This document shows positions 4,167-51,812 of a DNA stretch of 64,000 nt, piece by piece. The number at the start of each line of letters is the position of its first letter. The first letter of the stretch is position 1. Source of the stretch: an uncultured Actinomycetota bacterium (lineage in GTDB: Bacteria > Actinomycetota > Humimicrobiia > Humimicrobiales > Humimicrobiaceae); assembly GCA_964595565.1 (NCBI GenBank), contig CAZQQX010000006.1:2817-66816 (forward strand), in the 5' to 3' direction. The notes beneath the pieces were generated by a model, which saw only the letters and a program-made list of their open reading frames with translations, was not told where the DNA came from and did not search any database. The translations under genes and the position numbers were made by a program.

Positions 4167-5159
4167 TCAATCTGTTCTCTCTATTTTTACTTCTGTTTTT
4201 AGAACTTCTTTTTCTGCCTGCTCGTATGTAAGTAATTTTTCCTTCGCGCCCCTGTACTGCAATACAGATTTTGAATTTACCGCAGCAAGTTTAAGGGCAT
4301 ATCCAACACCTTTATTTTTAATAATGCCGGCCAGAAACGAGGCTGCAAAAGAGTCCCCGGCGCCGGTAGTCTCCACCACCCTAACATTTGGGGGATATAA
4401 TATGAAACGCCTGTTTTTATCATCCATGCAGTGGACAGGTCCGGCTCCGTCAGTTATTATCACTATCCCCGGGCCAAGCTCTTTTAAGGACCTCAGCTTG
4501 TTTGATTTTCTCTTCTTACCTACCAGAATATCCGCTTCCTCTTCATTAAGTACAAGAATAGTGGTGTTTTTAATGATTTCATTTAAAAAGTCCACGCCTT
4601 TTTCACACAGATAATTGCTCGGGTTAAACAATATTTTTATATTATTTTTCACGGCATAACGGGAAAGTTTTTCCATGGTTTTAAAAGATTCTCCCATCAT
4701 GCTGGTCATACAGAGCCACCGGGTTTTTATTTTTTTCAGGTCAATTTCATCATAGAAAAGAAAATCATTTATTCCCTTGTAGACGAGCACGGTTCTCCTT
4801 TTCTCCAGACTATCAAGAATAACAGAATAGCCTGTTCTGTAATTTTTATAATTATCCTCAACCCCCAGAAAATCTATTTTTTCCTTTTTCAGGTTCTCCA
4901 GAATATCCATTGACCTTATATTTTTTGCAAGTTTACCGATGTATCCCGTCTTTAATCCCAGTCTCGAAAGGCAAACTGCGGTATTGGTTCCACCGCCCCC
5001 GATATAAAAATCAAGTTTATCTATCAATAATTTTGACCCTACAGGATAGGATATATAGTGCTCTTCTTCGTTAAGCGTCCTTATATAAAATGATCTGGTC
5101 TTATCGGTATAAACAAATACGTCAGTGGTATTTGACCCTATTGTTATTACGTCATACAT
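4167..5159 (-). CDS. PfkB-family carbohydrate/ribokinase-like kinase
   Basis: GGGGTNTA and TTGAGDSF motifs. The ORF track starts at a TTG at 5201; the ATG at 5159 (MYDVITIG) with an upstream GGAGG is the more likely start. Confidence 0.75.
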   Translation of the reverse strand: MYDVITIGSNTTDVFVYTDKTRSFYIRTLNEEEHYISYPVGSKLLIDKLDFYIGGGGTNTAVCLSRLGLKTGYIGKLAKNIRSMDILENLKKEKIDFLGVEDNYKNYRTGYSVILDSLEKRRTVLVYKGINDFLFYDEIDLKKIKTRWLCMTSMMGESFKTMEKLSRYAVKNNIKILFNPSNYLCEKGVDFLNEIIKNTTILVLNEEEADILVGKKRKSNKLRSLKELGPGIVIITDGAGPVHCMDDKNRRFILYPPNVRVVETTGAGDSFAASFLAGIIKNKGVGYALKLAAVNSKSVLQYRGAKEKLLTYEQAEKEVLKTEVKIERTD

Positions 5160-5426
5160 ATAATATTTTTCCTCCTTAATATTCTCCTTCCCCGGCGACA
5201 ATCTTTATTTAAATGCAGGTATAAAAATCCTGCTCCGCCATTACCAGCCAAAAAAAGAAATGAGGTTACCATTTAAAAGAAGTGGGATTCCGCCTACCGG
5301 AAGTGGAATTTTAATTTTTTGTTTCATTGTATCGCTGAGCTCCCATAACCGGGGAAAATTACTGTATTACTATTCCGTTCATATAAATTTCATATCCTGC
5401 ATTCATCTACTTCAAATTAAGTTAAT

Positions 5427-6110: not shown

Positions 6111-6513
6111 CAGGCTAGTGCGCCTTTCTGCTTCTAATTATCTATAAGAAGACCGGTAGAAATTAATTAATTAATTAAATAAAAAGTTTTATAAAAATCT
6201 TTATATTTAAAATATCATATAAACCCTCTTTTTTTAAGTTTTACTTTTAACAAAATTTTTACTGTATAATAATTAAACTCTTTGCCTTTGCAGTAGAAAA
6301 TAGCCAGAGACCTGTTATAGAGAGAAAGACCGGGATATTCTTTACTATCTGAAACCATACCGGTAATCTAAAACAGTTTCCGATAGAACTCTGTAACAAA
6401 AATAAGCTGTTCTGCTATTATAAATATAATAACTACCATTAGAGCAGCAGGGCCTGGCAGGATCAATTAAAAACTATAGTAAAATTAAATACGGCGGTCA
6501 TTGGAGGTTAAAT

Positions 6514-7302
6514 ATGCCGGAGTTACCTGATGTAGAACACTTCAGGCGCATTTTCTATCATACTTCTTTAAATAAGGAGATTATAAATGTTAAAAGACTG
6601 GATTCTAAAATAATAAAGAATACCGGCATACAATCTTTTAAAGAATGCCTTACGGGCTCAAAATTCATCACCACGGAAAGGCAGGGAAAATATCTTTTTG
6701 CAAAGACCAGCAAGGAAAAATGGGTTGTCTTTCATTTTGGCATGACTGGAAATTTTATTTATCAGAAGAATAAAAATAATATCCCCGAACATACCAGGGC
6801 CCATTTTGAATTTAGGGATTCAGCAATTTCATATATATCCGTGAGAAAACTGGGAAAAATTTTTCTGGTTGATTCAAAACAATCTTTTATAGAACAAAAA
6901 AAATTAGGGCCAGATGCACTGGACATAAATCTTAAGACATTCAGCAAAAAAATTAAAAACAAAAAAAAGATAAAATCAGCATTCCTTGACCAGTCAGTTA
7001 TTGCAGGAGTGGGAAATATGTATGCTGATGAGATATTGTTCCAGTCCGGTATTCATCCTGAAACCAGAGCCGATAGCCTCAGTGATGAATCCATTAAGAA
7101 ATTACACCGGAATACTCTTAAAATATTAAGGACTGCAATAGATAGAAAAGTTGATATAGACAAATTCCCTGATAACTGGCTCATACTTAAAAGAAAAATA
7201 GAGGCAGACTGTCCGTATGAATGTGGCGGGAAAATTAAAAGGATAAAAATTAACAACAGGTCTACCTATTACTGTCCTGTATGTCAGAAATTGCAAAAAT
7301 AA
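6514..7302 (+). CDS. mutM: formamidopyrimidine-DNA glycosylase / endonuclease VIII family (Fpg/Nei)
   Basis: N-terminal MPELPDVE with catalytic Pro2, an H2TH region, and a C-terminal CPYECGG...CPVCQK zinc finger; SD GGAGG upstream. Confidence 0.85.
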   Translation: MPELPDVEHFRRIFYHTSLNKEIINVKRLDSKIIKNTGIQSFKECLTGSKFITTERQGKYLFAKTSKEKWVVFHFGMTGNFIYQKNKNNIPEHTRAHFEFRDSAISYISVRKLGKIFLVDSKQSFIEQKKLGPDALDINLKTFSKKIKNKKKIKSAFLDQSVIAGVGNMYADEILFQSGIHPETRADSLSDESIKKLHRNTLKILRTAIDRKVDIDKFPDNWLILKRKIEADCPYECGGKIKRIKINNRSTYYCPVCQKLQK

Positions 7303-7465
7303 GTTTTAGGGACTGCTTTCATTAATATTAATATTATCATTATTATTATATTTTCTTTTCTCTTTCCTTATTAATGGTTAATACTATTATTCTTTTATAA
7401 TTTTACGGCCCGCGATTTATTGCCCGGTAATGAAAAATAAGGGTACCTATAATAAATCTGTATTC

Positions 7466-7494
7466 TTGTTAAAATTCCCAATTGCTTCTAAAAT
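7466..7494 (+). promoter_or_regulatory. candidate sigma-A-type promoter (TTGTTA-17 nt-TAAAAT) for the LigD-PE/DUF72 pair
   Basis: Near-consensus -35 and -10 hexamers with 17-nt spacing, about 40 nt upstream of the ATG at 7532. Confidence 0.35.
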
Positions 7495-7531
7495 TAAAAG
7501 ATAAAGAAAATAAATTATATTTCTTAATTCT

Positions 7532-8107
7532 ATGAATGACCTGGACCAGTATAAGAAAAAAAGAGATTTTGGAAAAACCGGCGAGCCTGGAGCTAAAATA
7601 AAGAAAGGCAAAAGCAATAATCTTATTTACGTTATCCAGAAACATAAGGCAAGCAATCTGCATTATGATTTAAGGCTGGAATTAAACGGGGTTCTTAAAT
7701 CCTGGGCAATCCCAAAAGGGCCTTCTGCTGACCCTTCGCAGAAGAAACTCGCAGTACCCACTGAAGACCACCCTATTGATTATGCTTACTTTGAGGGGGT
7801 AATCCCCGCCGGACAGTATGGGGCAGGAACTGTTATTGTCTGGGATAAAGGAACCTATAAAAATCTAAAAGATAACATTTCTCTTAAAGAGGCCTACCGG
7901 AAAGGTAGGTTAGAAATTTTTATTGATGGAGAAAAATTAAAGGGTGGCTATGCCTTAATCAGAACCGGGAAAAATCAGGAAACCGACCGCCGGTGGCTCC
8001 TGATAAAAATGAAAGATAGCTATGCAGATGCCAGAAGAAATCCGGTAAAGACCGAGCCCAATTCGGTTATAAGCAATAAAACCATCGAAGAACTGGAAGA
8101 AAAATAA
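7532..8107 (+). CDS. standalone DNA ligase D 3'-phosphoesterase (PE) domain protein
   Basis: RDFGKTGEP...VIQKHKASNLHYDLRLE...GVLKSWAIPKGPS matches the LigD PE-domain signature; no ligase or polymerase domain is attached. Confidence 0.75.
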   Translation: MNDLDQYKKKRDFGKTGEPGAKIKKGKSNNLIYVIQKHKASNLHYDLRLELNGVLKSWAIPKGPSADPSQKKLAVPTEDHPIDYAYFEGVIPAGQYGAGTVIVWDKGTYKNLKDNISLKEAYRKGRLEIFIDGEKLKGGYALIRTGKNQETDRRWLLIKMKDSYADARRNPVKTEPNSVISNKTIEELEEK

Positions 8108-8114
8108 TTTAATA

Positions 8115-8849
8115 ATGGCTCATAAACATAAAATATTTATAGGAACATCAGGCTGGAACTATAAAAGCTGGAAAAAAAAGTTTTATCCTGAAGAATTGTC
8201 TCAGAAAGAATGGCTTAGCTATTATTCAAAAAAATTTAATTCAGTTGAGATAAACAATACTTTTTACCAGCTCCCCGGTAAAAACACCTTCCGTAACTGG
8301 TCCTCCAGTACACCTGAAAGCTTTACCTTTTCGGTTAAAGCCTCGAGGTATATAACTCACCTTAAAAAATTAAATGATTGTGATGACGCTGTTAGCAGGC
8401 TAATTGACCATTCCACAGGGCTCGGTAAAAAGCTTGGAATTTTTTTATTCCAGCTGCCGGGTAATCAGCACAGAGATAAAAAAAAATTAAAAAAATTTTT
8501 ATCTCTGCTGCCGGATAAATACAGATATGTCTTTGAGTTCAGGCATGACTCCTGGTTTGATAATGATATATTTGAACTCCTGGACAATAATAACTGCGGA
8601 ATAGTAATTAATTCTTCACCTGACTTTCCTTTTTATGACATTGCTACAGGAAAGATATGTTATATAAGAATGCACGGCAGTAAAACCCTGTATTCATCCA
8701 GATATACAGATAAAGAACTAAAAAATTTTGCAGAGATAGTGCTTAAATACCATAAAAAAGGGTATGAATTATTTGTATTTTTTAATAATGACGTTCACGG
8801 CTATGCAGTAGAAAATGCAGATACCCTGCAGAAAATTATTATATCTTAA
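8115..8849 (+). CDS. DUF72 (YecE-like) family protein
   Basis: GTSGWNYKSWKKKFYP...FNSVEINNTFYQLP matches the DUF72 N-terminal signature; starts 8 nt after the PE gene, so likely co-transcribed. Confidence 0.75.
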   Translation: MAHKHKIFIGTSGWNYKSWKKKFYPEELSQKEWLSYYSKKFNSVEINNTFYQLPGKNTFRNWSSSTPESFTFSVKASRYITHLKKLNDCDDAVSRLIDHSTGLGKKLGIFLFQLPGNQHRDKKKLKKFLSLLPDKYRYVFEFRHDSWFDNDIFELLDNNNCGIVINSSPDFPFYDIATGKICYIRMHGSKTLYSSRYTDKELKNFAEIVLKYHKKGYELFVFFNNDVHGYAVENADTLQKIIIS

Positions 8850-8861
8850 ATGCCCTATTTT

Positions 8862-9053
8862 TTAACATTGAAAACAGTATTCCTGAATTTTCAAAAGCCC
8901 TGATGCCTTAATCAAAAAGATACCATGGAGGCTAAAAAAACTTACCAGCCCTCCTGTATTGGGAGTTTTTTCATAGATTAGAGCACGGACACCATTTTTA
9001 TTCATGTAGGCTGCACAGGTTAAATCAGTCAGACCGGCACCTACTACAATCAC
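8862..9053 (-). pseudogene. N-terminal fragment (63 aa) of an FAD-dependent oxidoreductase (phytoene-desaturase/amine-oxidase-like)
   Basis: IVVGAGLTDLTCAAYMNKNGVRALIYEK...GG is a Rossmann FAD-binding N-terminus; the ORF ends after 63 aa, right where the convergent DUF72 gene ends. Confidence 0.5.
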
Positions 9054-9232: not shown

Positions 9233-9568
9233 CTAATAAGCGCTCCAACCGCCATCCGCAATAACTACTGCTCCATTTACAAAGCTGGAGTCCTGACTTG
9301 CTAAAAATAAGGCTATGGAAGCAATTTCTTTAGATTTTCCAGCCCCGGGGTTAAGCTTCATACCCGGGGTGGCTCTTTCCATTCCGAATTGGCTCGGTTC
9401 AGTTATTGTATCCCCTATACTGTTCTCTACTGCGCCCGGAACTATAGCATTACACCTAATACCCTTTTTAGCGTACTGGAACCCAACATTTTTAGTTAAA
9501 CCTACTATTGCATGTTTTGAAGCAGTATAAACAGCACCTGCTCTGAGATAACAGACATATTTGAACAT
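9233..9568 (-). pseudogene. C-terminal fragment (111 aa) of a short-chain dehydrogenase/reductase
   Basis: YTASKHAIVGLTK (YxxxK active site) ...PGAV...FVNGAVVIADGG is an SDR C-terminal half; no N-terminal TGxxxGxG region exists upstream in any frame before the tmRNA. Confidence 0.55.
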
Positions 9569-9746: not shown

Positions 9747-10099
9747 TGGTGGAGGCGGCGGGAATCGAACCCGCGTCCGGAGATATCGCCACTTAAATAT
9801 CTACAAGTTTAGTCCATATTTTAAATCTCACTTTTTTACTCGTGTGAACACGATTAAACAAGCCAGCCCGCGTAATGTTTCCCCTGATACTACCGCAGGC
9901 GAACTATATCAGAGTATCCTGCTAAACGGCGCCTATCGAAAAGCACAGGAAACTTTCCGTAGACGTAGCAACTTTATATTAAGCTGCTAAGGCTAATTCA
10001 TTATCATTAGCGTTTATGTTTATTTCAGTTATTTACGAGTTCTGATACTCGACTTGCAATTTAAGCTCAACCTATCACCGTCGAACCCGGATCGCCCCC
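9747..10099 (-). ncRNA. ssrA: tmRNA (transfer-messenger RNA, ssrA)
   Basis: The minus strand reads 5'-GGGGGCGATCCGGGTTCGACGG...GGACGCGGGTTCGATTCCCGCCGCCTCCACCA-3'. The acceptor stem GGGGGCG/CGCCUCC pairs, a T-arm is present, and an internal tag ORF GCT AAT GAT AAT GAA TTA GCC TTA GCA GCT TAA gives ANDNELALAA. Confidence 0.9.
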
Positions 10100-14813: not shown

Positions 14814-15918
14814 TTACGCTTTGTATAATTTTTTTTCAAGAAAACCCCTGATTAATAAATCTATATCTCCATCCAGCACCGACTGGACGTCGCCAATTTC
14901 AATTCCGGTTCGGTGGTCCTTGATTAACTGATAGGGCTGGAGGGTGTAACTCCTTATCTGGTTACCCCATCCAATATCTTTCTTTTCTCCCCTTAGATTA
15001 TTAATTTCTTCAATTTTTTTCTCTCTCTCAAGCTCGAATAATTTTGACCTTAAAATCTGGACGGCAGTCTGCCTGTTAAGTATCTGCGACCTCTCATTCT
15101 GGCACTGAACAACTATGTTTGTTGACAGGTGAGTAATCCTTACCGCTGAATCTGTTACATTGACATGCTGGCCGCCCGCACTGCTTGATTTAAAGGTTTC
15201 TACTTTTAAATCCTCCTTATTTAATTTTACGTCAATATCCTTATTCACTAACGGCACTACATCCACGGAAGCAAAAGAAGTATGCCTTCGCCGGGATGAA
15301 TCAAAGGGTGAGATTCTAACCAGCCTGTGAATTCCTTTCTCCGACTTTAGCAAACCATAAGCATTCTTACCGGTAACAGTAAAAGTTACATTTTTTATTC
15401 CTGCTTCCTCACCGCTCTGGTAATCATTAATACTGTGCGAGAATCCCTTTTTATCAATCCAGCGCCTGTACATACGAAGTAACATCTCTGCCCAGTCCTG
15501 TGATTCCGTCCCCCCTGCGCCGGGATGAATGGTTACCACCGCAGGGTATGAATCGTATTTATCATTTAAAACCAGGCTCTCTTCCAGGTCAGCCAGCAGT
15601 TTCTCAATATCATCCAGAGTTTCTTCTAATTCTTTCTCCAGGCTGCTATCTTCTTCGCTTACAAGAATTTCCAGTGCCAGTTCTGCATTTCCTATTTTTT
15701 CTTCCAGGTCCTCAATTTTAGCTACTACTTCCTTGATTTCAGAAATTTCCCTGGTTATAGCCTGTGCTTTTGTATTGTCATCCCAGAAATTCTCCGATAG
15801 GGCTGCCTTCTGAAGTTCTTTTAACCTGACATTTTTTTTATCCAGTTCAAAGACAGTTCTTTAAAAAAACCAGCTTTTTAAGTATTTTATCTAATCTAAG
15901 TCTGCTATCCTCTATCAT
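14814..15918 (-). CDS. prfB: peptide chain release factor 2, requiring a +1 programmed ribosomal frameshift
   Basis: Frame 0 runs ATG 15918 (SD GGAGG) ... MIEDSRLRLDKILKKLVFLKNCL then CTT TGA at 15852-15847. The +1 frame continues ELDKKNVRLKELQKAALSENFWDD ... GGQHVNVTDSAVRITH (GGQ motif) to the stop at 14814, for about 367 aa in total. The ORF track shows only the N-truncated 14814..15539 piece. Confidence 0.85.
15847..15852 (-). other. prfB autoregulatory +1 frameshift site (CUU UGA A)
   Basis: In-frame UGA at codon 24 preceded by a CUU slippery Leu codon, exactly as in the canonical RF2 recoding site. Confidence 0.8.
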
Positions 15919-38140: not shown

Positions 38141-39238
38141 TTAACCGGGATGTCTGAGCAGTACATATATATACCCCAGCATTTTTGAGATATCAATATG
38201 GATAAGTAAAAGAGGAACAAAAAGAACCGATAACAACTTTTCTTTCAGGTTAAAACTACAGCCATCTTTATTTTTAAATAATTTAAAGAGCCTCCAGTAC
38301 GATTTATATATATAAAGAGCAAAAAGAGGAATATATACAAACAGAATCCAGCCGCTTATATAAATCGCCATCAATATAATTAATACAAATACCAGAAGTG
38401 CAGCAAATCTTATAATGTGCCGGTATGCATACATCCTGCCCGCCGCATCTCCTCCTGCATACCTGAAAAACTGTTTAAATATCTGTACAGGATTCTTCCT
38501 CATTATCCAGTAGACTACGGCATCAGAATTAAACTTTATCCGGTAGCCTGCTTTTTTTATTTTAAAATTAAATTTCATATCCTCGCCATAATCCATATCC
38601 TCGGGGTAACCACCTGCATCAGCCCATACTTTCTTTTTAAAACTTGCATTTCTGGATGAAGGCATATAATTACCACTTTTTATTTCTTCTTTAAAAGGCA
38701 TAATACACGCGGCCAGGCACTTCTGCACAAAATTACTGCAGTATGGTATACTCAATCCTCCTATTACATCGCATGAAGGATCATCATAAAACTTCGTAAT
38801 TTCCACTAGCCAGTTCCTGTCAAGGATACATCCGGCATCGCTCACGCAGATAATCTTGCCTGATGCATTTTTTATTGCTTCATTTCTTCCCCTGGAAATA
38901 TTTGCCCCGTCTTTCTTTATTATCTTCACCTTTACCGGCCCGGAATCATTCTTAATGTTTTTAAGCTCTTTCTTTTTTTCTTCTTTCATTTTTCGGTCCG
39001 GCAGTGCTACCGAAAATACTTTATTTTTATCCCTTGCTGCCCTGTCTTTAAAAAAGGTTAATATACTCTCACGGGTACCATCTTCCGAGCCCCCGTCAAC
39101 TATAACTATTTCTCCCGGGATATGGCTCTGTTCAACCAGGCTTTCCATAAATTTAACAATGCTTTCCTTTTCATTGTAAACTGTAGTTACAAAGCTGACA
39201 TTGCCAAGAATTTCTCTTTTATTTTCTTTCCCGTTCAT
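38141..39238 (-). CDS. family-2 glycosyltransferase with C-terminal membrane anchor
   Basis: GT-A motifs (VSFVTTVYNEKESI...IVIVDGGSEDGT) plus about three C-terminal TM helices. Confidence 0.8.
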   Translation of the reverse strand: MNGKENKREILGNVSFVTTVYNEKESIVKFMESLVEQSHIPGEIVIVDGGSEDGTRESILTFFKDRAARDKNKVFSVALPDRKMKEEKKKELKNIKNDSGPVKVKIIKKDGANISRGRNEAIKNASGKIICVSDAGCILDRNWLVEITKFYDDPSCDVIGGLSIPYCSNFVQKCLAACIMPFKEEIKSGNYMPSSRNASFKKKVWADAGGYPEDMDYGEDMKFNFKIKKAGYRIKFNSDAVVYWIMRKNPVQIFKQFFRYAGGDAAGRMYAYRHIIRFAALLVFVLIILMAIYISGWILFVYIPLFALYIYKSYWRLFKLFKNKDGCSFNLKEKLLSVLFVPLLLIHIDISKMLGYIYVLLRHPG

Positions 39239-40185
39239 ATTAATTTTCTGTAATATAATTTAAACCCTTTAAAATAAGAAAAAAGCCTGGGCCTGTTTTC
39301 CCCGCCCGGCCTGAATACGGTTAATATTGAAAAAAGCAGTATCCGGTTTAAAATTCCTGCCTGATAAATCAGGCTTAACAACACAGCATGCATCCTGGAG
39401 TAATTCTTTTTAAAATATAACCTCCTGCTTTTCCATATCCCGGCTTCCCTTGCAGCCTGGTTTCTGGAAGCAATACCACTATCGGAATGTTTTATCACCA
39501 CACCGGGAAAAAAATAATTTTTAAAATTTTTCCGGTGTAATTTCAGACAGAGGTCGGTATCCTCACTGAACATAAAATAATCTTCATCAAACATGCCAGC
39601 CTGAAAAAAATAATCTTTTTTTATAAACATAAACGAACCTGTCAGCCAGTCTACTTCTCTTATCCTGCCATGGTCCCACCGGCTTAAAAAATATGCACCA
39701 AAAATGCGGCTTTTTTTAAATATTCTGTAAAGGAAATAGCTTTCATAAAACTGGCGGGCCAGTGTAGGAAAAGACCTCGGGCTATATTGCAGGGTTCCGT
39801 TCGGGTTTAATGTTTTTGCTCCAACCACACCCACCTTTTCACTTTTTTCCTTTTCATTATAAAAATTAATCAAATCATTAAGATTCCCGCTTATAAGCTC
39901 CGTATCAGGATTTAAGAATAAAAGGTATTTCCCTTTCGCTTTCAATACGCCTGTGTTTGAAGCTTTTGAAAAACCGGGATTACTTTTATTTTCTATTAAA
40001 TGTAGTCTGTCCTTTCCTTTGCTCAGTCTTTTTAGATATTCAACACTTCCATCATCTGAGTTATTATCAACAACCAGTATTTCACAGTCAGGTCCCTTTT
40101 CTTTTGCATCACAATCAATACTTTTAAGACATCTCTTTATAAAATCAAGACTGTTATAATTTACAATTACAATACTAATATCCAA
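39235..40185 (-). CDS. family-2 glycosyltransferase
   Basis: ISIVIVNYNSLDFIKRCLKSI...VVDNNSDDGSVEY. Confidence 0.8.
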   Translation of the reverse strand: MDISIVIVNYNSLDFIKRCLKSIDCDAKEKGPDCEILVVDNNSDDGSVEYLKRLSKGKDRLHLIENKSNPGFSKASNTGVLKAKGKYLLFLNPDTELISGNLNDLINFYNEKEKSEKVGVVGAKTLNPNGTLQYSPRSFPTLARQFYESYFLYRIFKKSRIFGAYFLSRWDHGRIREVDWLTGSFMFIKKDYFFQAGMFDEDYFMFSEDTDLCLKLHRKNFKNYFFPGVVIKHSDSGIASRNQAAREAGIWKSRRLYFKKNYSRMHAVLLSLIYQAGILNRILLFSILTVFRPGGENRPRLFSYFKGFKLYYRKLI

Positions 40186-40222
40186 TTATTATCCCCGTAT
40201 TAACTCATTTTTATTATTTAAA

Positions 40223-41863
40223 TTAATTTCCTGCCTGATGCTCTTCCATGATTTTATTGATTATTGAAATCAAATTCTCCTCAAATTTAATATCTGAAAA
40301 CCTCCTGCAGCTTAAAATTGCATTATTTATTATTCTCTTTACATCTACCTTCCCTTTTATTATATCCAGAGTTATATCCTTAAGCTCCTTCCGGCTACTG
40401 AATAAAAATCCATTATATCCGTGTTCAATAATTTCTTTCTGCCCGCCTTTATTTATGACCACAGGGATACAGCCTGCGGCCATTGCTTCTACGGTAGTAA
40501 TCCCAAAATGCTCAAATTTCTCGGGATGGGCTTCTTCGTCCTCCCCCATTCCCGAAGCATGCCAGAAAATAAATGACCCGGCAAAAACTTTAACCAGTTC
40601 TTTCCATTCAATATTGGTAATCACTTTTACAGGATAGCCTCTGGCTGCAGCAATTACCTTTTCTACATATTTCAGGTGGTCCGGCCTTTTGCTCGCTCCC
40701 CCCGCCAGGTACAGGGTATATCCCTTCATTTGCCCGGGATATTGTTCCAGCAGCTGCTTGAAAATCTCTACCATCTCAAGCTGCTTCTTATTATGATGCT
40801 CGGGGAAAAACCTGCCGACGCTTAAAATAATCTTTTCTTTCTTTTCTACCCTGAAACTGTCCGTATCTACAGGGGGATAAAGAATCACACTATCCCTTTT
40901 CCATAATTTCTTTATCCATTTTTTTGAGTACTCGGATATAGTAATAATTTTATGATAAGTTTCAAGAAACCTTAAATTGTCGGGAAAAGTTATCAGGAAT
41001 AAAGGGATATATCCCAGAACTTTTAAAATAAATTTTTTTAAAAGGTTTATTTTCCTCTCATCATATATAACCACTCCCAGACTCCTGGAATCTTCTGAAT
41101 CACTGTATTCTTCAGAGGGTTTAAAGGTGCTGGATGAAACCTGTATAATTGTAAATTCATTTCTGGTATCCAGTGGAACCCTGACAATTTCCATGGAACC
41201 CTTTACTAAACTGATATCCTTATCATAAATAGGTCTGTTCTCTTTTGCCTTCCCTTCAAAAACCTTAATGTTTACTTTCATCAGGTCCAGCGCGCTCGCT
41301 TCCGGATTCTTTAAACCCAGCTCCATATACTGTTCGGATTTCATTACCTTTAATTTAATCTTTCCGCTGCTCCAGCTGCCCCTCCTGAGTAAAAATCTTT
41401 TGGGCTCATATATACCCTCTTCCACCTCTATCTTATCAAAACCCTCTATCAACCTGCCTGCAACCTTAAACAGCCATATTGCCGGTTTTCTGAAAAAAAA
41501 TAGTAAAAACCGGTGAATAAATTTGAAATCTACATCAAAAGGAGTCGGGAAATAACACAAATATAAATTCCCGGAGCTATACGCAGGAAGCGAGCTTAAA
41601 TAAGTGGCATTTATAAAGAGGTCATATTTTTTAGTTATTTTTGCAGCATAATCTTCCGATATAAAGGGAAATATTTTTAAATTAACTTTATTTAAATCAA
41701 GATTCAGCCTTCTTGACACCTCTTTAAGGTCGGCAAATATATCGGTTATTATATCTACACTGTATTCTTTTTTTTTAGATAAGACTTCTGCAATTTTGCA
41801 ACTGTATCGTTCCCCGCCTCCGGCCGTTGAAAGGTACCTATCGTAAATAGCAATCCTTTTCAT
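40223..41863 (-). CDS. family-4 (GT-B) glycosyltransferase with extended N-terminal region
   Basis: C-terminal EHFGITTVEAMAAGCIPVV...GFLF retaining GT4 signature. Confidence 0.75.
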   Translation of the reverse strand: MKRIAIYDRYLSTAGGGERYSCKIAEVLSKKKEYSVDIITDIFADLKEVSRRLNLDLNKVNLKIFPFISEDYAAKITKKYDLFINATYLSSLPAYSSGNLYLCYFPTPFDVDFKFIHRFLLFFFRKPAIWLFKVAGRLIEGFDKIEVEEGIYEPKRFLLRRGSWSSGKIKLKVMKSEQYMELGLKNPEASALDLMKVNIKVFEGKAKENRPIYDKDISLVKGSMEIVRVPLDTRNEFTIIQVSSSTFKPSEEYSDSEDSRSLGVVIYDERKINLLKKFILKVLGYIPLFLITFPDNLRFLETYHKIITISEYSKKWIKKLWKRDSVILYPPVDTDSFRVEKKEKIILSVGRFFPEHHNKKQLEMVEIFKQLLEQYPGQMKGYTLYLAGGASKRPDHLKYVEKVIAAARGYPVKVITNIEWKELVKVFAGSFIFWHASGMGEDEEAHPEKFEHFGITTVEAMAAGCIPVVINKGGQKEIIEHGYNGFLFSSRKELKDITLDIIKGKVDVKRIINNAILSCRRFSDIKFEENLISIINKIMEEHQAGN

Positions 41864-41874
41864 AAAAATACCCG

Positions 41875-43287
41875 CTAAAAATTTCTAATCCAGCTTTTTA
41901 TAATTTTATCCTGAATCCTGTGGTCAGTTCTTATTTTAATCCTTCCTGTCAGATTTTTGGGCAATAAATAGAAAAGTTCAAAAAATACTCTAATTCTTGC
42001 AGGTATGTCAACCCTTTTTTGCCTCATACCCTTTAACAGACCTGATAGATAATATAAAATATGAATCAAACCTGAAACAACAAACGTCAGATAACACCTG
42101 ATAAACAGGAGCGGCCAGCCACACTTGAAAATCATTAGAAGCCTATTTCTTATTACATAATAGGTAAAATCATAAGACCATTCCCTGCCCGTGCCACAAT
42201 GAAAATGCCTGGCAACAGAACCGGGAGCAAAGAAATTTTTCCAGCCTGCCAGTCTTGCCCTCCAGAACAAATCAATATCCTCATAATAGGTAAAAAAACT
42301 TTCGTCGAAATAACCTGTTTCCTCCAGCATTTCCCTGTCAAGCATAATACTGCTTCCGGAAAGGCCAAAAACTTCCTCAACGCGATTATACTGGCCTTCA
42401 TCAATACTTTCCATACCCCTGTCTCTGCTGTAAAAAGATTTATTTATCTTAACGCCACAACTATTGATTATATCCTTACAGTTAATAAAATACTTTTTAG
42501 GGATTTTTATTTTTATTGTCTTTAATCTTTTTGAGAGTTTTACATCCTTTACTATTTCTTCACCTACTACTACCTGTAAGTTATTCGGTGAGATATAAGT
42601 TGCCGCTTTGAACTGCAACTCCATATCTCTTTCAGTGTTTGCCACCGGTATGGCAAGTATCGCATTGTCCTGTGTCCAGTGATAACTTCTCCCGTTACTG
42701 TCAGACTCAGCAGGATAGAACCCGTCCAGGTACTTAATATTATTTTCTAAAGGGTTATTATAATCTACGGCACCATTACCATCATTTATTATGGTTAAGT
42801 CACATATTTTAACCCCCAGTCTTCTTGATTTTTTGCTGTTTTTATTTTCACTCTGGCCGGTACAGCGGGTAATAATCTGAAAAGGAAGATAACTGTAATA
42901 AAAAACCACTTTGGAGCCCACAGCTCCTATTTTTGAATCACCGGTTGATTGTTTGAAAATAGACAGCATTTCAGACAACCAATCTTTTTCTACGATACAG
43001 TCATTATTTATTAAAGCTATATATCTGCCTTTTGAATGTCTGAATCCTTCATTATTCCCGCCGGCATAGCCCCTGTTCTCCCCGAGTGCGATTACTTCCA
43101 CCCACGGAAATTCTTTTTTTACAAATTCTACTGAACCATCGGTAGAGCCGTTATCGACCATTATTATCTGAATTTTATCAGCAGAGTAATTAAGACTAAT
43201 AATAGAATTAAAAAGATTTTTTAAAAATAATTTGCCATTAAAATTTACTGTTATGATTGATATTAAAGGGTCATCATCCTCGCTCAA
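41875..43287 (-). CDS. family-2 glycosyltransferase (large, about 470 aa)
   Basis: LISIITVNFNGKLFLKNLFNSI...MVDNGSTDGSVEFV. Confidence 0.75.
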   Translation of the reverse strand: MSEDDDPLISIITVNFNGKLFLKNLFNSIISLNYSADKIQIIMVDNGSTDGSVEFVKKEFPWVEVIALGENRGYAGGNNEGFRHSKGRYIALINNDCIVEKDWLSEMLSIFKQSTGDSKIGAVGSKVVFYYSYLPFQIITRCTGQSENKNSKKSRRLGVKICDLTIINDGNGAVDYNNPLENNIKYLDGFYPAESDSNGRSYHWTQDNAILAIPVANTERDMELQFKAATYISPNNLQVVVGEEIVKDVKLSKRLKTIKIKIPKKYFINCKDIINSCGVKINKSFYSRDRGMESIDEGQYNRVEEVFGLSGSSIMLDREMLEETGYFDESFFTYYEDIDLFWRARLAGWKNFFAPGSVARHFHCGTGREWSYDFTYYVIRNRLLMIFKCGWPLLFIRCYLTFVVSGLIHILYYLSGLLKGMRQKRVDIPARIRVFFELFYLLPKNLTGRIKIRTDHRIQDKIIKSWIRNF

Positions 43288-43318
43288 TTAAAACCTCACC
43301 TTACCTTTAATCAGGATA

Positions 43319-43717
43319 CTAGCTTCTGGAAATTACAATTACCCCGATCGTTATTACAATTGCTCCTATCCAGCGCACAGGATTAACATCCTCTTTCAAT
43401 ATAAATTTTGAAAGAACAAGCACCATTACATATGTAAAACCAATAAATGGATAAGCAAAGCTCAAATCCACTACAGATATTACTATAAGCCATATAGCAG
43501 CAGAAATTACATATAAAAACAGGCCGGTTAAAATCAGGGGGCTTTTTATCACCCCCAGAAATAATTGCTTTAAAAAATCAAACCCTTCAATATTGACTAT
43601 TCCGATACGATTTATCCCTATTTTTAATAGTAATTGTCCCCCGACGGCTATGGAAATACTCAGCAGTATTAGAAGTATAGAACCTGTTAAACTCAAATGC
43701 CCGCTCCTTTTAATCAT
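43319..43717 (-). CDS. small 4-TM EamA/SMR-like membrane protein (putative lipid-linked sugar flippase subunit)
   Basis: 132 aa, four predicted TM helices, DMT-superfamily half-size architecture, embedded in a GT cluster. Confidence 0.5.
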   Translation of the reverse strand: MIKRSGHLSLTGSILLILLSISIAVGGQLLLKIGINRIGIVNIEGFDFLKQLFLGVIKSPLILTGLFLYVISAAIWLIVISVVDLSFAYPFIGFTYVMVLVLSKFILKEDVNPVRWIGAIVITIGVIVISRS

Positions 43718-43772
43718 AATTTTAAGTATTTATTCTTATTAAACCCGCTTTTAGAAAAATCACCAGTTAAAA

Positions 43773-46094
43773 TTATATTTTCTTTACAAGATAATATCTA
43801 TTGGAAACTGAAAGCCCGATTATCCTGTCAATATTCTCAAAATCCCGCAACAGGACTTCCAGTTTCTGGTCAATGTCTATAACCGTTCCCGATTTATTTC
43901 TGGGTTTAAATCCCCCCAGAATTTCTCTCAGGCTGCTGATATTATAACCCAGATTTTTAACTTCTTCATAAAGAGTCCTGAAAATATTAAAGTATATAAG
44001 TAAGAGCCTCTCACGGTTTTTACGATTTAGTTCATTAATTTCCCTGTTTATCTGTAGCTGGATATTATTATTAATGGCTTTAATTGATTCATTGTAGCTC
44101 TTTCTTAAATTCTCAAAATACATACTGGTAAGAAGATACATATATCTTCTTAGCTTTCCTTTTATGGTTTTATCTTCCGTAAGCTCCTCTGAACCCAGAA
44201 TATCCAGCCGGCTCAAAAGTTTCAATTCATCAAAGTTTTCCTTATTTAATTTTATTTCAAAAAGTTCAAATAATTCATTTTCTCCATATACCTCGTCCGT
44301 CTTATTACCACCGACAAATACCGGATTCTTTTCAAACTTATCCCATATTCCTTTTTCCATGATTTCAAATCCTGCATTTTTAAATATAAATTCAATGGTA
44401 AAATCATCAATCCTTGAACCTGTTCTATCTTCCCTGCTTCCCTCACCCAGAAGTTTATAAATTCCTCTCTTTTCTGGCATGGAAAAAAATAACAGGCCTT
44501 CTTTTTTTAATTTTGAAGCCAGCACATTTGTCAGGTCATAGAAAAATTTTGGAGTAATTTTTAGAAAAGCGTTATTTAAAATAATTCCATCAAACTTTGT
44601 TCTCTGGGTTATTTTAGATTTCAAAATCCCGACTTTATCCAGGCCCGAATATTCATCTTCATCATCAGATAAAACAAAGTCACCGTCCACTTCAAGATTA
44701 AAAATTTTACCCACATCTTTTTTATTTATAATATCTTCGTCCCTGTATTTATTAGAAGTTATTTTTAAAACATTCGCGCAACCCTCAAAATTCTTCTTTA
44801 TAATTCGCGAAATCTTACTATTCTGTAAATCTATCATCTCAACTATTTTTTTCTTATCCAGTGAATAATAAGAATTAACACAATATTTAACCAGTGGTTC
44901 AGTTACATTTTCCCAGTAAAACCGGGGAGCAATCCTATTTAAATTTTTACTATAAATTTCTTTTAAGCTTTTATTGGTAACCACACTTTCTATTACTCTG
45001 GCAAGCTGGTGCGTATCCTCATAACTTACCACCTCACCAATATTCTCGCTCTTTACAATTCGTGCAATAGAATCACCCTCGGTGGTTATTACAGGAAGCC
45101 TCGCCCATATGTAATCAATGACCCTGGTCCTGTAGGAAAATTCCGTTTCAATCCTGTCACTATGAATGGATAATCCCGCATCCGAATCCAGCAGAACAGC
45201 CTGCCTCAGGTCATACGGGGTCCATTCATTAAAAAATATATTTTTATCATATAAATCCAGCTCTTTTGCCAGATTTATAGCTTCCACACACTTTTTCATC
45301 CGGGGAAGCTTGGGGTCAGGGTGATTTACCCCCATAAACACCAGCTTTATATCTTTCCTGTTTCTTGTAATTTCCCATATTGCTTTTATCGCTGTGGTAG
45401 GGTCAAGCCAGTTCCATATTCCACCTCCCCATAAAACTAACTTATCTTCTTCACTAACGTCAGGTACAATATCCCTTATGGAAAAATTATTGCGCCGGGG
45501 CGGTTCGGAAGGTATGCCGGAAGGTACTATATCTATCAAATTTCTTAAAGTATTGTCGGAGTCATAATTGTATGGATTGATCCTGCCCATAGCATTCAAC
45601 ATTCCTACCCAGTAATCCCTCTGTTTTTCACTTGCACAGATAAAAAAATCTCCAATGGTAAGCTGGAGCTTTAATATATTTAAATTATTCTTATCAATCC
45701 TGAGTCTTTCTACCATATCACTTTCCCTGAACATCTCCAGGCTCTCAAGATTAAAGGGATTATAAAGGTCTACAATAATCTTTCCCTTAAAGTTTTTCAG
45801 GAAAGGAAAATAATAAAGGATATGCCCCTGTATTAATATAATTTCAGAATTCTCAATGCTTCTCTGCAGGCTCTTATAGCTATTTAATTTATACTGCCTG
45901 GTTCTAAATCCTTCGATATCAATATCTACTCTGTTGGGAGTAAGTAAAGTAACATCAAGATAATTGGATAGAATCTTTGCAAATTCATAGAAACGTATGC
46001 CGGGCCCGGCCATTTTTTTACCAATTACATCATAGCTTATGATACATATTCTTGATCGATTTTTCTTGCCAGGTTCAACAACTTCTTTCTCCAT
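43773..46094 (-). CDS. multidomain protein: GT4-like glycosyltransferase fused to a methyltransferase-like domain and a C-terminal coiled coil
   Basis: The N-terminal approximately 400 aa carries a GT-B retaining motif (ETEFSYRTRVIDYIWARLPVITTEGD). The middle region FDGIILNNAFLKI...GLLFFS resembles class-I SAM-MTase motifs. The tail is heptad-rich. Confidence 0.6.
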   Translation of the reverse strand: MEKEVVEPGKKNRSRICIISYDVIGKKMAGPGIRFYEFAKILSNYLDVTLLTPNRVDIDIEGFRTRQYKLNSYKSLQRSIENSEIILIQGHILYYFPFLKNFKGKIIVDLYNPFNLESLEMFRESDMVERLRIDKNNLNILKLQLTIGDFFICASEKQRDYWVGMLNAMGRINPYNYDSDNTLRNLIDIVPSGIPSEPPRRNNFSIRDIVPDVSEEDKLVLWGGGIWNWLDPTTAIKAIWEITRNRKDIKLVFMGVNHPDPKLPRMKKCVEAINLAKELDLYDKNIFFNEWTPYDLRQAVLLDSDAGLSIHSDRIETEFSYRTRVIDYIWARLPVITTEGDSIARIVKSENIGEVVSYEDTHQLARVIESVVTNKSLKEIYSKNLNRIAPRFYWENVTEPLVKYCVNSYYSLDKKKIVEMIDLQNSKISRIIKKNFEGCANVLKITSNKYRDEDIINKKDVGKIFNLEVDGDFVLSDDEDEYSGLDKVGILKSKITQRTKFDGIILNNAFLKITPKFFYDLTNVLASKLKKEGLLFFSMPEKRGIYKLLGEGSREDRTGSRIDDFTIEFIFKNAGFEIMEKGIWDKFEKNPVFVGGNKTDEVYGENELFELFEIKLNKENFDELKLLSRLDILGSEELTEDKTIKGKLRRYMYLLTSMYFENLRKSYNESIKAINNNIQLQINREINELNRKNRERLLLIYFNIFRTLYEEVKNLGYNISSLREILGGFKPRNKSGTVIDIDQKLEVLLRDFENIDRIIGLSVSNRYYLVKKI

Positions 46095-46179
46095 TATTTC
46101 TCCTCTGCCGCTTTAAAAATTATCCAAAAGCCTTTTTACGTTAAAAACTCCAGGTTATTTCTTTATTTCAAGATTGCAA

Positions 46180-47226: not shown

Positions 47227-47302
47227 AACGAAAAAATTAATAACAGAAATATTTTGAATACTTGCATCTTTTTAAATATAGCATCCGTGCTTGCTTAAAT
47301 AT

Positions 47303-51070: not shown

Positions 51071-51119
51071 TAACTACCTTTTGCAGTTTAATATATTTTC
51101 CGGGTCCACTGTACTGCAT

Positions 51120-51581
51120 TTAATCGGTAACCTGATGCCTGAACCTTTTGCTTGAAGCTCTGAGTTTTAATCTAACCGATGTACCCATGGAAATACCGAG
51201 CCACAGGCCCCAGACAGTTTCCCTGGAAAAGAAATAAAAAGCAAGCTCTGAAATAGTAAGACTGGAGTTAAACAGTTCAGTTACTACTGTATTTACCAGA
51301 CCGGTTTTATATAGCAATAGCGCAATAGCAGGTATACAGCCTGAAATCAAAAATGTTTTTATGTCAAAATAGTTCCTATTTACTATCGGCTTCATACTGA
51401 GAATTATCAGTAATCCAATCATAAACCCAAGAATAAGAACAATAATGAGCCTCAAAAAACTTAAAAAACCGGCCGGCAGGCTGTAAGCTGCCAGTGCGGC
51501 GGTAATATTATCAAAATATGCAAAAGCGGTATAATAGAGAATTATATTTATAAAACTGAATATGATAAGAAAAATTCTCAT
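51120..51581 (-). CDS. 4-TM membrane protein, unassigned family (paralogue of 53533..54063)
   Basis: 153 aa, four hydrophobic helices, convergent with the PD40 gene; about 45% identical to 53533..54063. Confidence 0.5.
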   Translation of the reverse strand: MRIFLIIFSFINIILYYTAFAYFDNITAALAAYSLPAGFLSFLRLIIVLILGFMIGLLIILSMKPIVNRNYFDIKTFLISGCIPAIALLLYKTGLVNTVVTELFNSSLTISELAFYFFSRETVWGLWLGISMGTSVRLKLRASSKRFRHQVTD

Positions 51582-51812
51582 TTTTTTATCCGCTGTCTTC
51601 TTTCTATTTATATCATTTTTTTTAAAATGACTGATAAGCAGATGTTAACTTAAAAAAATACTAATTTCAATTAATATTGTATTCTGTTATACTTTAAAAC
51701 TTGAAAAAATATTAAATGCATTTATAGTTTATAATTATTATCAGTTTATTTAACTTAATCTTAATGTCCAAATCCTATAATCTGTAATATAGATAAAAAG
51801 GTATAAAAAAAA

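Follow-up and report, generated by a model that had tools for sequence, protein, structure and literature searches.

A Candidate Ku-Independent Base-Excision Repair Cluster in Ca. Humimicrobiia That Links a Loop-Less Fpg and a Stand-Alone LigD-Type Phosphoesterase With a DUF72 Protein

Organization of the Locus

The window analysed here is a stretch of 64,000 nucleotides from an uncultured low-GC actinobacterium of the class Ca. Humimicrobiia, to which SecA homologues assign it. Three adjacent open reading frames on its + strand encode a formamidopyrimidine-type glycosylase (fpg), a LigD-type phosphoesterase (PE) and a protein of the DUF72 family. These are the three frames that a sequence-only reading had placed at 6514-8849, and all of them were recovered there on the + strand. 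The features of the locus are as follows:

6514..7302, + strand, bifunctional glycosylase / AP lyase, Fpg/Nei family, short "loop-less" subfamily (262 aa; Pfam and residues)
7532..8107, + strand, stand-alone LigD-type 3'-phosphoesterase, PE (191 aa; LigD_N, TIGR02777)
8115..8849, + strand, DUF72 family TIM-barrel protein (244 aa; PF01904)
6263..7432, no strand, segment of ~1.17 kb holding fpg and its own flanks, missing from the sister lineage L087/L088 (DNA alignment)
7465..7496, + strand, promoter-like element of the PE-DUF72 unit, TTGTTA -17- TAAAAT (32 nt; 36 nt 5' of the PE start)
8951..8975, + strand, terminator-like hairpin and T-run, ~100 nt 3' of the DUF72 stop (CTCCTGTATTGGGAG then TTTTTTCATA)

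PE and DUF72 lie very close together. The earlier count of 8 nt between the PE stop and the DUF72 start needs a small correction, because the stop ends at 8107 and the ATG begins at 8115, which leaves 7 nt. The promoter/terminator scan found no terminator-like site in this gap, and DUF72 is probably co-transcribed with PE. The call at 8951..8975 is a consensus match only from the same scan, and the hairpin could plausibly be the end of the transcription unit.

The suggestion that PE has a plausible promoter of its own has gained weight. The motif TTGTTA-17-TAAAAT (7466-7494) sits inside the 32-nt element at 7465-7496, which is exact in the window species and in two other lineages (L087/L088 and L091/L092) while the surrounding AT-rich spacer has diverged. 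The element is kept in part in L183 and L089. The pattern occurs nowhere else in the window, and the chance expectation is 0 matches. Promoter-like matches in the region as a whole show no excess over chance (13 observed vs 12.8 expected). The ATG of fpg is preceded by a strong GGAGG at 7 nt.

Rfam matched only the tmRNA in the window, hence the spacers lack a riboswitch or leader. No remnants of fpg or PE were found in the intergenic spacers. A 16-nt repeat (6286-6301 / 8801-8816) raised the idea of a DUF72 pseudogene 5' of fpg; six-frame HMM searches were negative (best E=1), and the repeat is treated as chance. The 27 other window ORFs scanned by Pfam are housekeeping or cell-envelope genes. 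Homologues of Ku, ATP ligase and Prim-Pol were not detected in the 64-kb window (phmmer E<=1e-6), and PADLOC defence-system models gave 0 families for the Fpg, PE and DUF72 proteins.

The LigD-Type Phosphoesterase

The PE protein matches LigD_N (6e-44, 149 bits; cutoff 31.1) and TIGR02777 LigD_PE_dom (219 bits; cutoff 144), and profile searches revealed no ligase or polymerase domain in its 191 aa. Its PDB matches are the Methanocella structure 5dmp (7e-59) and the LigD PE of Pseudomonas aeruginosa (Pae; 2lj6, 2e-50; 3n9b, 2e-48). Together with CkoPE (3p43) and MbaPE (3p4h), these belong to one fold family with the window protein. Six side chains are essential in the Pae active site, namely His42, His48, Asp50, Arg52, His84 and Tyr88, while Arg14, Asp15 and Glu21 of the N-peptide, together with Glu82, are needed for the 3'-phosphomonoesterase reaction (PMC3082917, PMC8656161). 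In the alignment, R11, D12, E18, Q36, H38 and H44 of the window PE correspond to Pae R14, D15, E21, Q40, H42 and H48, and D46, R48, E78, H80 and Y84 correspond to Pae D50, R52, E82, H84 and Y88. All six catalytic residues (H38, H44, D46, R48, H80, Y84) are therefore in place, as are the 3'-phosphomonoesterase residues R11, D12, E18 and E78 (KKRDFGKTGEP...TEDH), and the known LigD-type PEs share both sets. The aligned residues are invariant in 20 stand-alone homologues, with the exception of D12, which is at least 90% conserved. The 3'-phosphatase role proposed for PE had been made to hang on its catalytic His/Asp/Arg residues; the His/His/Asp/Arg/His/Tyr set and the N-peptide Arg-Asp...Glu are intact, in keeping with such an activity. 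From these residues we infer that the window PE would act as a Mn2+-dependent 3'-phosphatase and 3'-ribonuclease.

Stand-alone PEs are common, with thousands of proteins of ~190-205 aa. The window PE differs from the known ones in that it is paired with DUF72 and Fpg and has no adjoining ligase, Prim-Pol or Ku.

A Loop-Less Fpg Subfamily

The three-domain architecture of the Fpg/Nei family is complete in the window Fpg. It comprises an N-terminal Fapy_DNA_glyco domain (1e-25, residues 1-116), an H2TH domain (4e-25, 131-212) and a C-terminal zinc finger (zf-FPG_IleRS, 1e-6, 237-259). The closest solved structure is the Lactococcus lactis Fpg (1tdz, 3e-34). Conserved residues include Pro2, Glu3, Lys59, Met77, Arg111, Asn168 and Arg249; P2, E3, K59 and the zinc-finger cysteines C233, C237, C254 and C257 are kept across 90 subfamily sequences. 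The Pro-Glu dyad, the Lys, the intercalating Met/Arg, the H2TH and the C4 zinc finger are all shared with canonical MutM/Fpg (E. coli, L. lactis) and with plant/fungal Fpg. Since Pro2, Glu3 and Lys59 are kept, a beta,delta-lyase product with a 3'-phosphate would be expected.

The window Fpg differs from canonical MutM/Fpg in its score, which falls under the equivalog cutoffs (TIGR00577, 192.8 bits vs 203.3; NF002211, 188.8 vs 212), and in the loss of the loop that caps 8-oxoG. The loop region carries a 9-residue deletion, so that the linker from H2TH to zinc finger is 26 residues vs 35 in L. lactis Fpg, and the GGSS...G..G.MQ segment is exchanged for DxDxFP. The 26-residue linker is common to 70/90 subfamily sequences, and the window Fpg is assigned to a distinct Fpg subfamily. 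Short-loop plant Fpg is not known to excise 8-oxoG. Given this precedent and the deleted capping loop, the substrates may be Fapy lesions, hydantoins or AP sites, and the substrate range of the loop-less Fpg probably excludes 8-oxoG.

The DUF72 Protein

The third protein matches PF01904 at 1e-70 (238 bits; cutoff 25.3). This family, to which E. coli YecE belongs, has 23,793 representatives at 50% identity. Against the YecE equivalog NF007637 the window protein reaches 83.5 bits vs a cutoff of 412, with a match limited to residues 7-151, and by this profile it is not a YecE equivalog. It is in one family with TM1631 (1vpq, 1e-26); the solved DUF72 structures also include EF0366 (1vpy/1ztv). Its AF2 model (pLDDT 94.6) has a TM-score of 0.83 to 1vpq, and the invariant polar residues S12, E45, N47, K75, Q113, E141, R143, R185, H187, N225 and D226 lie in or beside the barrel strands predicted by that model.

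No experimentally assigned function of DUF72 was found in the literature, nor a paper that links it to LigD, PE or Fpg. A part in DNA repair has been put forward for it on computational grounds, in one paper as an EndoIV-like protein (PMC3828134) and in another as a UVDE-like protein enriched near polB2 (PMC11791011). EndoIV, UVDE and DUF72 share the xylose-isomerase-like barrel group, but DUF72 crystal structures differ from these nucleases in showing no metal and no trinuclear metal site (PMC3828134), and the similarity to UVDE is weak. In a Foldseek search with the model, DUF72 structures come first, followed by xylose-isomerase-like barrels that include SacUVDE. UVDE takes rank 30 (E 7.5e-5), and the best matches outside the family are L-rhamnose isomerase, MbnB and sugar epimerases. 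As sugar isomerases and MbnB are nearer than UVDE, the fold does not point to a nuclease specifically. Rosetta-stone fusions with repair domains are absent among the best 150 of the 23,793 representatives, which are essentially single-domain; the eight longer ones among these 150 have DUF72 as sole domain.

Recurrence of the Gene Association

The survey of loop-less Fpg neighbours covered 80 metagenome loci of the window subfamily, which form 77 clusters at 90% identity. Within 5 kb of the subfamily Fpg, DUF72 is present in 11/80 loci, PE in 5/80, ligase in 5/80, Prim-Pol in 6/80 and Ku in 0/80. Split LigD modules (PE, ATP ligase, Prim-Pol) are found within that distance in 7/80. Where at least 5 kb of flank is available, DUF72 and/or a LigD module is present in 12/34 loci. 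As controls, 47 other window proteins were used as queries, and each was met in at most 1/80 Fpg loci. The positive loci fall into 13 clades with <60% Fpg identity and a GC of 35-69%. In an unbiased count of Pfam families among 118 immediate neighbours of this subfamily, UDG occurs 8 times, NTPase_1 6, DUF72 5, DUF488 5, Prim-Pol 3 and LigD_N 2.

Gene orders differ among these loci. The order is PE>Lig>PrimPol>Fpg>DUF72 in L125, Fpg>PE>Lig>PrimPol in L112, Fpg then <DUF72<PrimPol<Lig<PE in L114 and L143, and LigA>DUF72>Fpg in L108. Fpg is clustered with an ATP-dependent ligase and Prim-Pol in L012, L101, L112, L114, L125 and L143; in the window it is not. No fewer than 8 independent clades have DUF72 next to the Fpg subfamily and to LigD modules. 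The view of the trio as a compact unit needs revision in part. Adjacency of Fpg with PE and with DUF72 is far above controls in many unrelated lineages, but the trio does not stand by itself: a larger set with ATP ligase and Prim-Pol also recurs (L125, L112, L012, L114, L143), of which the trio looks like a reduced form.

A second survey was anchored on PE in 80 GTDB loci. Here DUF72 lies beside or near multi-domain LigD-type genes in 4 loci, a count (4/80) that is not above some multi-copy control families, and the window Fpg subfamily lies beside PE-Lig-PrimPol in 2. One of the DUF72 loci, L056 of the culturable Geomobilimonas luticola JCM 17780, has a PE-ligase gene followed by DUF72. In L095 and L096, 1.5 kb separates DUF72 from Prim-Pol. 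Outside the clade, repair neighbours are missing for most of the DUF72 genes inspected (L097/L098, L179, L180/L181). Co-occurrence of DUF72 with PE or end-joining genes, on which its nomination as a DNA-end-processing partner had been staked, is nonetheless observed with both PE and LigD genes.

These surveys bear on two other functional readings. PE and DUF72 could be accessories of classical Ku/LigD non-homologous end joining, with fpg incidental. PE is the end-healing module of LigD, the usual setting of stand-alone PEs in GTDB is a PE>Lig>PrimPol operon, 16/80 loci have Ku close by, and Ku lies within a few kb in 3/4 of the GTDB DUF72 cases (L056, L057, L086). Among solved structures, PE and the cassette Prim-Pol are closest to the Methanocella proteins 5dmp and 5dmu ("NHEJ Polymerase"), and sister lineages dispense with fpg. 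We nevertheless regard this reading as unlikely. Neither the window nor any of the 80 Fpg-subfamily loci has Ku, not even the 7 with LigD modules, the strongest DUF72 association is with the glycosylase (11/80) and not with Ku, and the theme of the neighbourhoods is base excision (UDG, LigA, ferritin/rubrerythrin).

Less likely still is a reading in which no common function unites the three genes and DUF72 is a small-molecule TIM-barrel enzyme of the sugar-phosphate type that happens to share the PE operon. The Foldseek ranking, the metal-free crystal structures (PMC3828134), the many DUF72 genes in metabolic contexts and the lack of repair fusions among the best 150 representatives are all consistent with it. 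Chance neighbours would not readily account for the recurrence of DUF72, in at least 8 clades, next to the Fpg subfamily and LigD modules, when the 47 control families reach at most 1 locus each, or for the tight spacing of PE and DUF72 described below.

Close Relatives and Origin of the Cluster

The trio is also present on independent metagenome contigs of the window species (L001-L004). PE and DUF72 are adjacent in four lineages (the window, L087/L088, L091/L092 and L182-L184) with a DUF72 identity of 73-92%, and their spacing is 1-33 nt in three of these and ~130 nt in the fourth. Just two of the four have fpg at the cluster, and L087/L088 and L182-L184 carry PE-DUF72 at the matching place without it. 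When the window DNA is aligned with L087, flank identity is >90% as far as ~6262 and again from ~7433, and the intervening stretch is absent from L087. On one contig of the window species fpg is split by a 1-nt deletion in an A8 run. Because fpg is absent in two close relatives and split on one contig, PE-DUF72 cannot depend on the window Fpg. The idea of an Fpg-PE end-cleaning unit therefore needs to be recast: adjacency of Fpg with PE and with DUF72 does recur, but the unit conserved in this lineage is PE-DUF72 and not Fpg-PE. PE-DUF72 is the conserved core, a predicted two-gene operon with its own promoter, and fpg is an accessory located just upstream.

The cluster might be the remnant of a small genomic islet beside the tmRNA gene that was horizontally acquired as cargo, and to this we assign a very low probability. 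The cluster runs on the strand opposite to its neighbours, its GC is 0.337 vs about 0.38-0.39, a distance of 0.9 kb separates it from the ssrA 3' end, two gene fragments follow it, and in L091 the trio stands in another context and adjoins an rve_3 fragment. An ssrA island was rejected, as there is neither an integrase nor a directly repeated copy of the tmRNA 3' end. Moreover, several related lineages have PE-DUF72 next to the same PfkB and flavin-reductase genes, and L087/L088 have it next to the same tmRNA/smpB locus; these shared neighbours argue for vertical inheritance. The islet reading concerns origin and is compatible with any function.

A Proposed Repair Pathway

As the Fpg subfamily recurs beside DUF72 and split LigD modules and never beside Ku, we read the trio as a reduced, Ku-independent, LigC/Prim-PolC-like cassette for short-gap base-excision repair in Ca. 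Humimicrobiia, with DUF72 as an enzyme of the pathway. On balance we consider this reading probable. In the first step, Fpg would remove an oxidised base or cut an abasic site by beta,delta-elimination, and Pro2, Glu3 and Lys59 suggest that the product would be a one-nucleotide gap with a 3'-phosphate and a 5'-phosphate. The Mn-dependent PE, as its residues predict, would then turn the 3'-phosphate into a 3'-OH and could later trim ribonucleotides. Gap filling by Prim-Pol and sealing by the ATP ligase would follow; the window has neither gene, and both are adjacent in related cassettes. As a barrel of the EndoIV/UVDE superfamily, DUF72 would most likely act on DNA, with a blocked end or an abasic site as possible targets. 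Its biochemical role in repair is one that we infer from gene association and fold. More tentatively, and as a possibility that we rate well below the cassette reading itself, DUF72 may be an unrecognised DNA-repair enzyme, an EndoIV/UVDE-superfamily barrel whose targets are abasic sites, 3'/5' ends that are blocked, or embedded ribonucleotides. It would act alongside the loop-less Fpg and stand-alone LigD modules (PE, Prim-Pol, ligase) in a self-contained base-excision pathway that does without Ku, with PE rather than Xth/Nfo clearing the 3'-phosphate.

Comparison With Known Repair Systems

The operon link of Fpg, ligase and PrimPol and the role of LigC/Prim-PolC in base-excision repair are already published (PMC5663958). 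In some mycobacteria the genes for LigC/Prim-PolC share a transcript with FPG; the enzymes mend gaps made by Fpg once a 3'-phosphatase has acted, and they do not bind to Ku (PMC5663958). The window trio and its related cassettes resemble this mycobacterial system (Plocinski et al., 2017, PMC5663958; Brissett et al., 2020, PMC7442782) in linking Fpg, within the related cassettes, to an ATP-dependent ligase and an AEP Prim-Pol, in a predicted independence from Ku (no Ku in the window or the 80 Fpg-subfamily loci) and in the proposed order of an Fpg beta,delta-lyase, 3'-phosphate removal, gap filling and ligation. They differ in that the mycobacterial 3'-phosphate is removed by EndoIV/ExoIII/XthA and the system is described without PE or DUF72, whereas the window has PE and DUF72 and its ligase and Prim-Pol counterparts occur only in related cassettes. 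A part for PE and DUF72 in the Fpg-ligase-PrimPol link appears unreported. For the cassette Prim-Pol, the Methanocella NHEJ Pol (5dmu, 5.5e-79) is a closer match than Prim-PolC (6sa0, 1e-42).

The mammalian NEIL1/2-PNKP-Pol beta-Lig3 route is a form of base-excision repair that is independent of APE. The proposed pathway is like it in coupling an Fpg/Nei-type beta,delta-lyase to a dedicated 3'-phosphatase and not to an AP endonuclease. The two phosphatases are unrelated, PNKP being of the HAD family and PE a beta-barrel Mn enzyme, and the likeness is an analogy only.

Significance

DUF72 is a widespread and structurally solved family, and the gene association gives it a testable role in DNA repair. 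With this association, the search comes down to a small number of inexpensive assays on DNA processed by Fpg. If the proposed pathway is true, the idea of excision repair by LigC/Prim-PolC would reach beyond mycobacteria, and a loop-less Fpg subfamily would be defined whose substrates are probably not 8-oxoG. The LigD phosphoesterase would then serve beyond end joining too, as the 3'-phosphatase in a base-excision route that needs no AP endonuclease, by analogy with mammalian NEIL-PNKP.

The repair genes and their surroundings

The fpg gene, the gene for PE (a stand-alone LigD-type 3'-phosphoesterase) and a DUF72 gene lie side by side as the sequence-only reading described them, and open reading frames together with Pfam and NCBIfam profiles confirm this arrangement.

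Features of the locus
6514-7302, + strand: Fpg/Nei glycosylase, 262 aa; Fapy_DNA_glyco, H2TH and zf-FPG (Pfam/NCBIfam)
7532-8107, + strand: PE, LigD 3'-phosphoesterase domain protein, 191 aa; LigD_N 6e-44, TIGR02777 219 bits (cutoff 144)
8115-8849, + strand: DUF72 protein, 244 aa; DUF72 1e-70
8951: terminator-like site 3' of DUF72
9747-10099, - strand: tmRNA gene; Rfam 216 bits, tag peptide ANDNELALAA
10152-10634, - strand: smpB, directly after the tmRNA gene

The trio is found in identical copies on independent metagenome contigs. It is on the + strand and nearly all genes around it are on the - strand. On its 5' side, in divergent orientation, are genes for a flavin-reductase-like protein and a PfkB kinase, and two gene fragments precede the tmRNA gene and smpB on its 3' side. 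The fragments, both on the - strand between DUF72 and the tmRNA gene, derive from an FAD/NAD(P)-binding oxidoreductase (N-terminal piece, 63 aa; 8862-9053) and a short-chain dehydrogenase (C-terminal half, 111 aa; 9233-9568). The dehydrogenase is whole (252 aa) at the equivalent site of the sister lineage L087/L088, hence the spacer is undergoing decay in the window species. Neither an integrase nor an att-like repeat of the tmRNA end was found at the locus, no defence-system model matched, and Rfam matched no RNA family besides tmRNA. A 16-nt direct repeat occurs 5' of fpg (6286-6301, CTTTGCAGTAGAAAAT) and within the 3' end of the DUF72 gene (8801-8816, CTATGCAGTAGAAAAT). No remnant of DUF72 was detected 5' of fpg by HMM, and the repeat is therefore probably due to chance.

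All other Pfam-scanned ORFs of the window are housekeeping or cell-envelope genes. A release factor 2 gene (14814-15900, - strand) appears to contain a classical programmed +1 frameshift at 15840-15855: its short N-terminal frame MIEDSRLRLDKILKKLVFLKNCL stops at CTT TGA A, and the +1 frame reads ELDKKNVRLKELQ... into a 241-aa ORF with PCRF/RF-1 domains. A long series of glycosyltransferase genes (38141-48877, - strand) is followed on the opposite strand by two large PD40/DUF5050 beta-propeller proteins (49061-53579, +), and GC skew is inverted in this region. SecA of the window shares 79-80% identity with its counterparts in Candidatus Hydromicrobium and Humimicrobiaceae MAGs (Actinomycetota, class Ca. 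Humimicrobiia). Contig names such as MLSed and CSSed suggest that some related contigs may come from lake sediment.

Properties of the three proteins

PE aligns best to 5dmp and also to the P. aeruginosa LigD PE (2lj6/3n9b); no ligase or polymerase domain was detected in it by Pfam or NCBIfam. The alignment shows that it retains the complete catalytic set on which the earlier assignment depended. The six active-site-defining residues (PMC3082917, PMC8656161) are present as H38, H44, D46, R48, H80 and Y84 (Pae His42, His48, Asp50, Arg52, His84 and Tyr88) and are invariant in 20 stand-alone homologues. The N-peptide set for 3'-phosphatase activity specifically is also present (R11, D12, E18 and E78, equivalent to Pae Arg14, Asp15, Glu21 and Glu82). 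Free-standing PEs about 190-205 aa long are very abundant, with 7,995 matches.

Fpg retains Pro2, Glu3, Lys59, Met77, Arg111, Asn168, Arg249 and the four zinc-finger Cys. Its scores fall under all MutM/Nei equivalog cutoffs, and compared with L. lactis Fpg nine residues are missing from the stretch that joins the H2TH domain to the zinc finger, in the region of the 8-oxoG-capping loop, where a TAIDxKxDxDxFP motif is found instead. It is thus a member of the Fpg/Nei family and not a canonical MutM. The resulting 26-residue linker is common to 70 of 90 related Fpg sequences, the short-linker subfamily. Short-loop plant Fpg provides a comparison, from which we infer that the window Fpg may prefer lesions other than 8-oxoG. 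On L001, a contig of the same species, a 1-nt deletion in the A8 run at 6961-6968 splits fpg (871-1658) into ORFs of 152 and 94 aa; the split may reflect a genuine frameshift variant or an error of sequencing or assembly.

The DUF72 protein matches TM1631 (1vpq, 1e-26) and by NCBIfam score is not the YecE equivalog. Its AlphaFold model (pLDDT 94.6) matches DUF72 crystal structures first, followed by xylose-isomerase-like barrels, namely L-rhamnose isomerase, MbnB, SacUVDE (rank 30) and sugar epimerases. The invariant polar residues are within or beside predicted barrel strands, the pattern expected of an enzyme. The modelled fold does not discriminate between a nuclease and a sugar-phosphate enzyme.

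A PE-DUF72 core with an accessory fpg

In the sister lineage L087/L088 (PE 84%, DUF72 92% identical), PE-DUF72 lies between the same flanks as in the window, without fpg; in a DNA alignment the window carries an extra segment of ~1.17 kb (about 6263-7432) that consists of fpg with flanks of its own. In a third lineage (L182-L184; PE 75%, DUF72 73%), PfkB and flavin reductase genes are followed by PE-DUF72, again without fpg. The fourth (L091/L092; Fpg 73%, PE 81%, DUF72 74%) has the complete trio in another context. Because PE-DUF72 is present in all four lineages and fpg is missing from two, PE-DUF72 is the conserved core and fpg is accessory. A gap of 7 nt separates the PE stop from the DUF72 start, and neither the fpg-PE nor the PE-DUF72 spacer has a terminator-like site. 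At 7465-7496 lies a 32-nt element that contains TTGTTA-17-TAAAAT and occurs once in the window; it is exactly kept in the window species, L087/L088 and L091/L092, with the rest of the spacer DNA diverged. This conservation supports a putative promoter of PE-DUF72's own, as had been suggested from the window.

More distant PE relatives adjoin a stand-alone Prim-Pol, and DUF72 relatives at 69% identity have a Prim-Pol 1.5 kb away. A PfkB-family sugar kinase gene is found just 5' of the repair genes in the window (4167-5201) and in the Humimicrobiia-like L093-L095, L182 and L183, and also upstream in a more distant five-gene cassette (L125, 1439-2386); it reflects either old synteny or coincidence.

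Recurrence of the gene association

Eighty metagenome loci anchored on the Fpg subfamily were scanned (382 kb flank, 77 clusters at 90% identity). DUF72 is found within 5 kb in 11/80, and LigD modules within the same distance in 7/80 (PE 5, ATP ligase 5, Prim-Pol 6); Ku was found within 5 kb in 0/80. DUF72 and/or a LigD module occurs in 15/80 loci, and in 12/34 of those with at least 5 kb of flank. Each of 47 other window proteins, used as control queries, matched at most 1/80 loci. A simple Poisson calculation that assumes DUF72 once or twice in a 3-Mb genome gives 0.13-0.26 expected matches (P < 1e-14). The positive loci represent 13 clades (<60% Fpg identity) of 35-69% GC, and their gene orders vary.

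Gene orders at Fpg-subfamily loci
L125: PfkB, PE, ATP ligase, Prim-Pol, Fpg, DUF72
L112, L101: Fpg>PE>Lig>PrimPol
L114, L143: Fpg, then oppositely oriented operon PE>Lig>PrimPol>DUF72
L116, L132: Fpg>PrimPol
L103: DUF72>Fpg
L108 (1945-5575): LigA>DUF72>Fpg
L139: Fpg>DUF72

At L108 the genes for the NAD-dependent DNA ligase LigA, DUF72 and short-linker Fpg run in tandem on a single strand, with an AAA_17 kinase-like gene after them. Among 118 genes directly adjacent to those of the subfamily (loci L099-L178), an unbiased Pfam census counted UDG 8, NTPase_1 6, DUF72 5, DUF488 5, Prim-Pol 3, ferritin/rubrerythrin 3 and LigD_N 2. UDG-superfamily glycosylases, NTPase_1 (THEP1-type) and DUF488 proteins may be further members of this repair neighbourhood. 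Several DUF72 genes outside the window clade have no repair neighbours.

Eighty loci of GTDB species genomes were likewise scanned from the PE side (789 kb flank). Here stand-alone PEs are mostly within PE>Lig>PrimPol operons, with Ku near 16/80 and short-linker Fpg near 2/80, L012 (Fpg>PE>Lig>PrimPol) and L062. The proposed co-occurrence of DUF72 with PE/LigD genes is seen within 6 kb in 4/80 loci (L056, L057, L081, L086), always beside multi-domain LigD-type genes. This signal is modest, and control families with several copies score comparably by way of related genomes.

A proposed Ku-less excision-repair cassette

The recurrent set of short-linker Fpg, PE, ATP ligase, Prim-Pol and DUF72 without Ku follows the same logic as mycobacterial LigC/Prim-PolC. 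In some mycobacteria FPG is co-transcribed with LigC and Prim-PolC. FPG leaves a 3',5'-biphosphorylated gap, EndoIV/ExoIII/XthA acts as 3'-phosphatase in vitro, Prim-PolC fills the gap with ribonucleotides and LigC seals it, and the LigC/Prim-PolC complex does not bind Ku (PMC5663958; review PMC7470946). The recurrent set differs in that its predicted dedicated 3'-phosphatase is cluster-encoded, namely PE with the phosphatase-specific residues intact, and in that DUF72 is a frequent extra member. The window itself has only Fpg, PE and DUF72 of the five genes; a phmmer search with queries from related loci found no ATP ligase, Prim-Pol or Ku in its 64 kb. In the proposed mechanism PE would remove the 3'-phosphate left by Fpg. 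The match to LigC/Prim-PolC logic supports this role, so the original proposal gains comparative evidence, short of proof. A compact stand-alone unit, and PE as a substitute for Xth/Nfo, are so far hypothetical parts of that proposal.

Neither the Fpg-ligase-PrimPol link nor the stand-alone PE is new. In our literature search no publication connected DUF72 or PE with Fpg-containing cassettes, and none described the short-linker Fpg subfamily in a cassette context. A DNA-repair role of DUF72 has been proposed computationally (PMC3828134, PMC11791011). That DUF72 would act in DNA repair, as association and fold suggest, is the weakest step of the argument. The main value of the finding is that it offers a concrete, testable function for DUF72.
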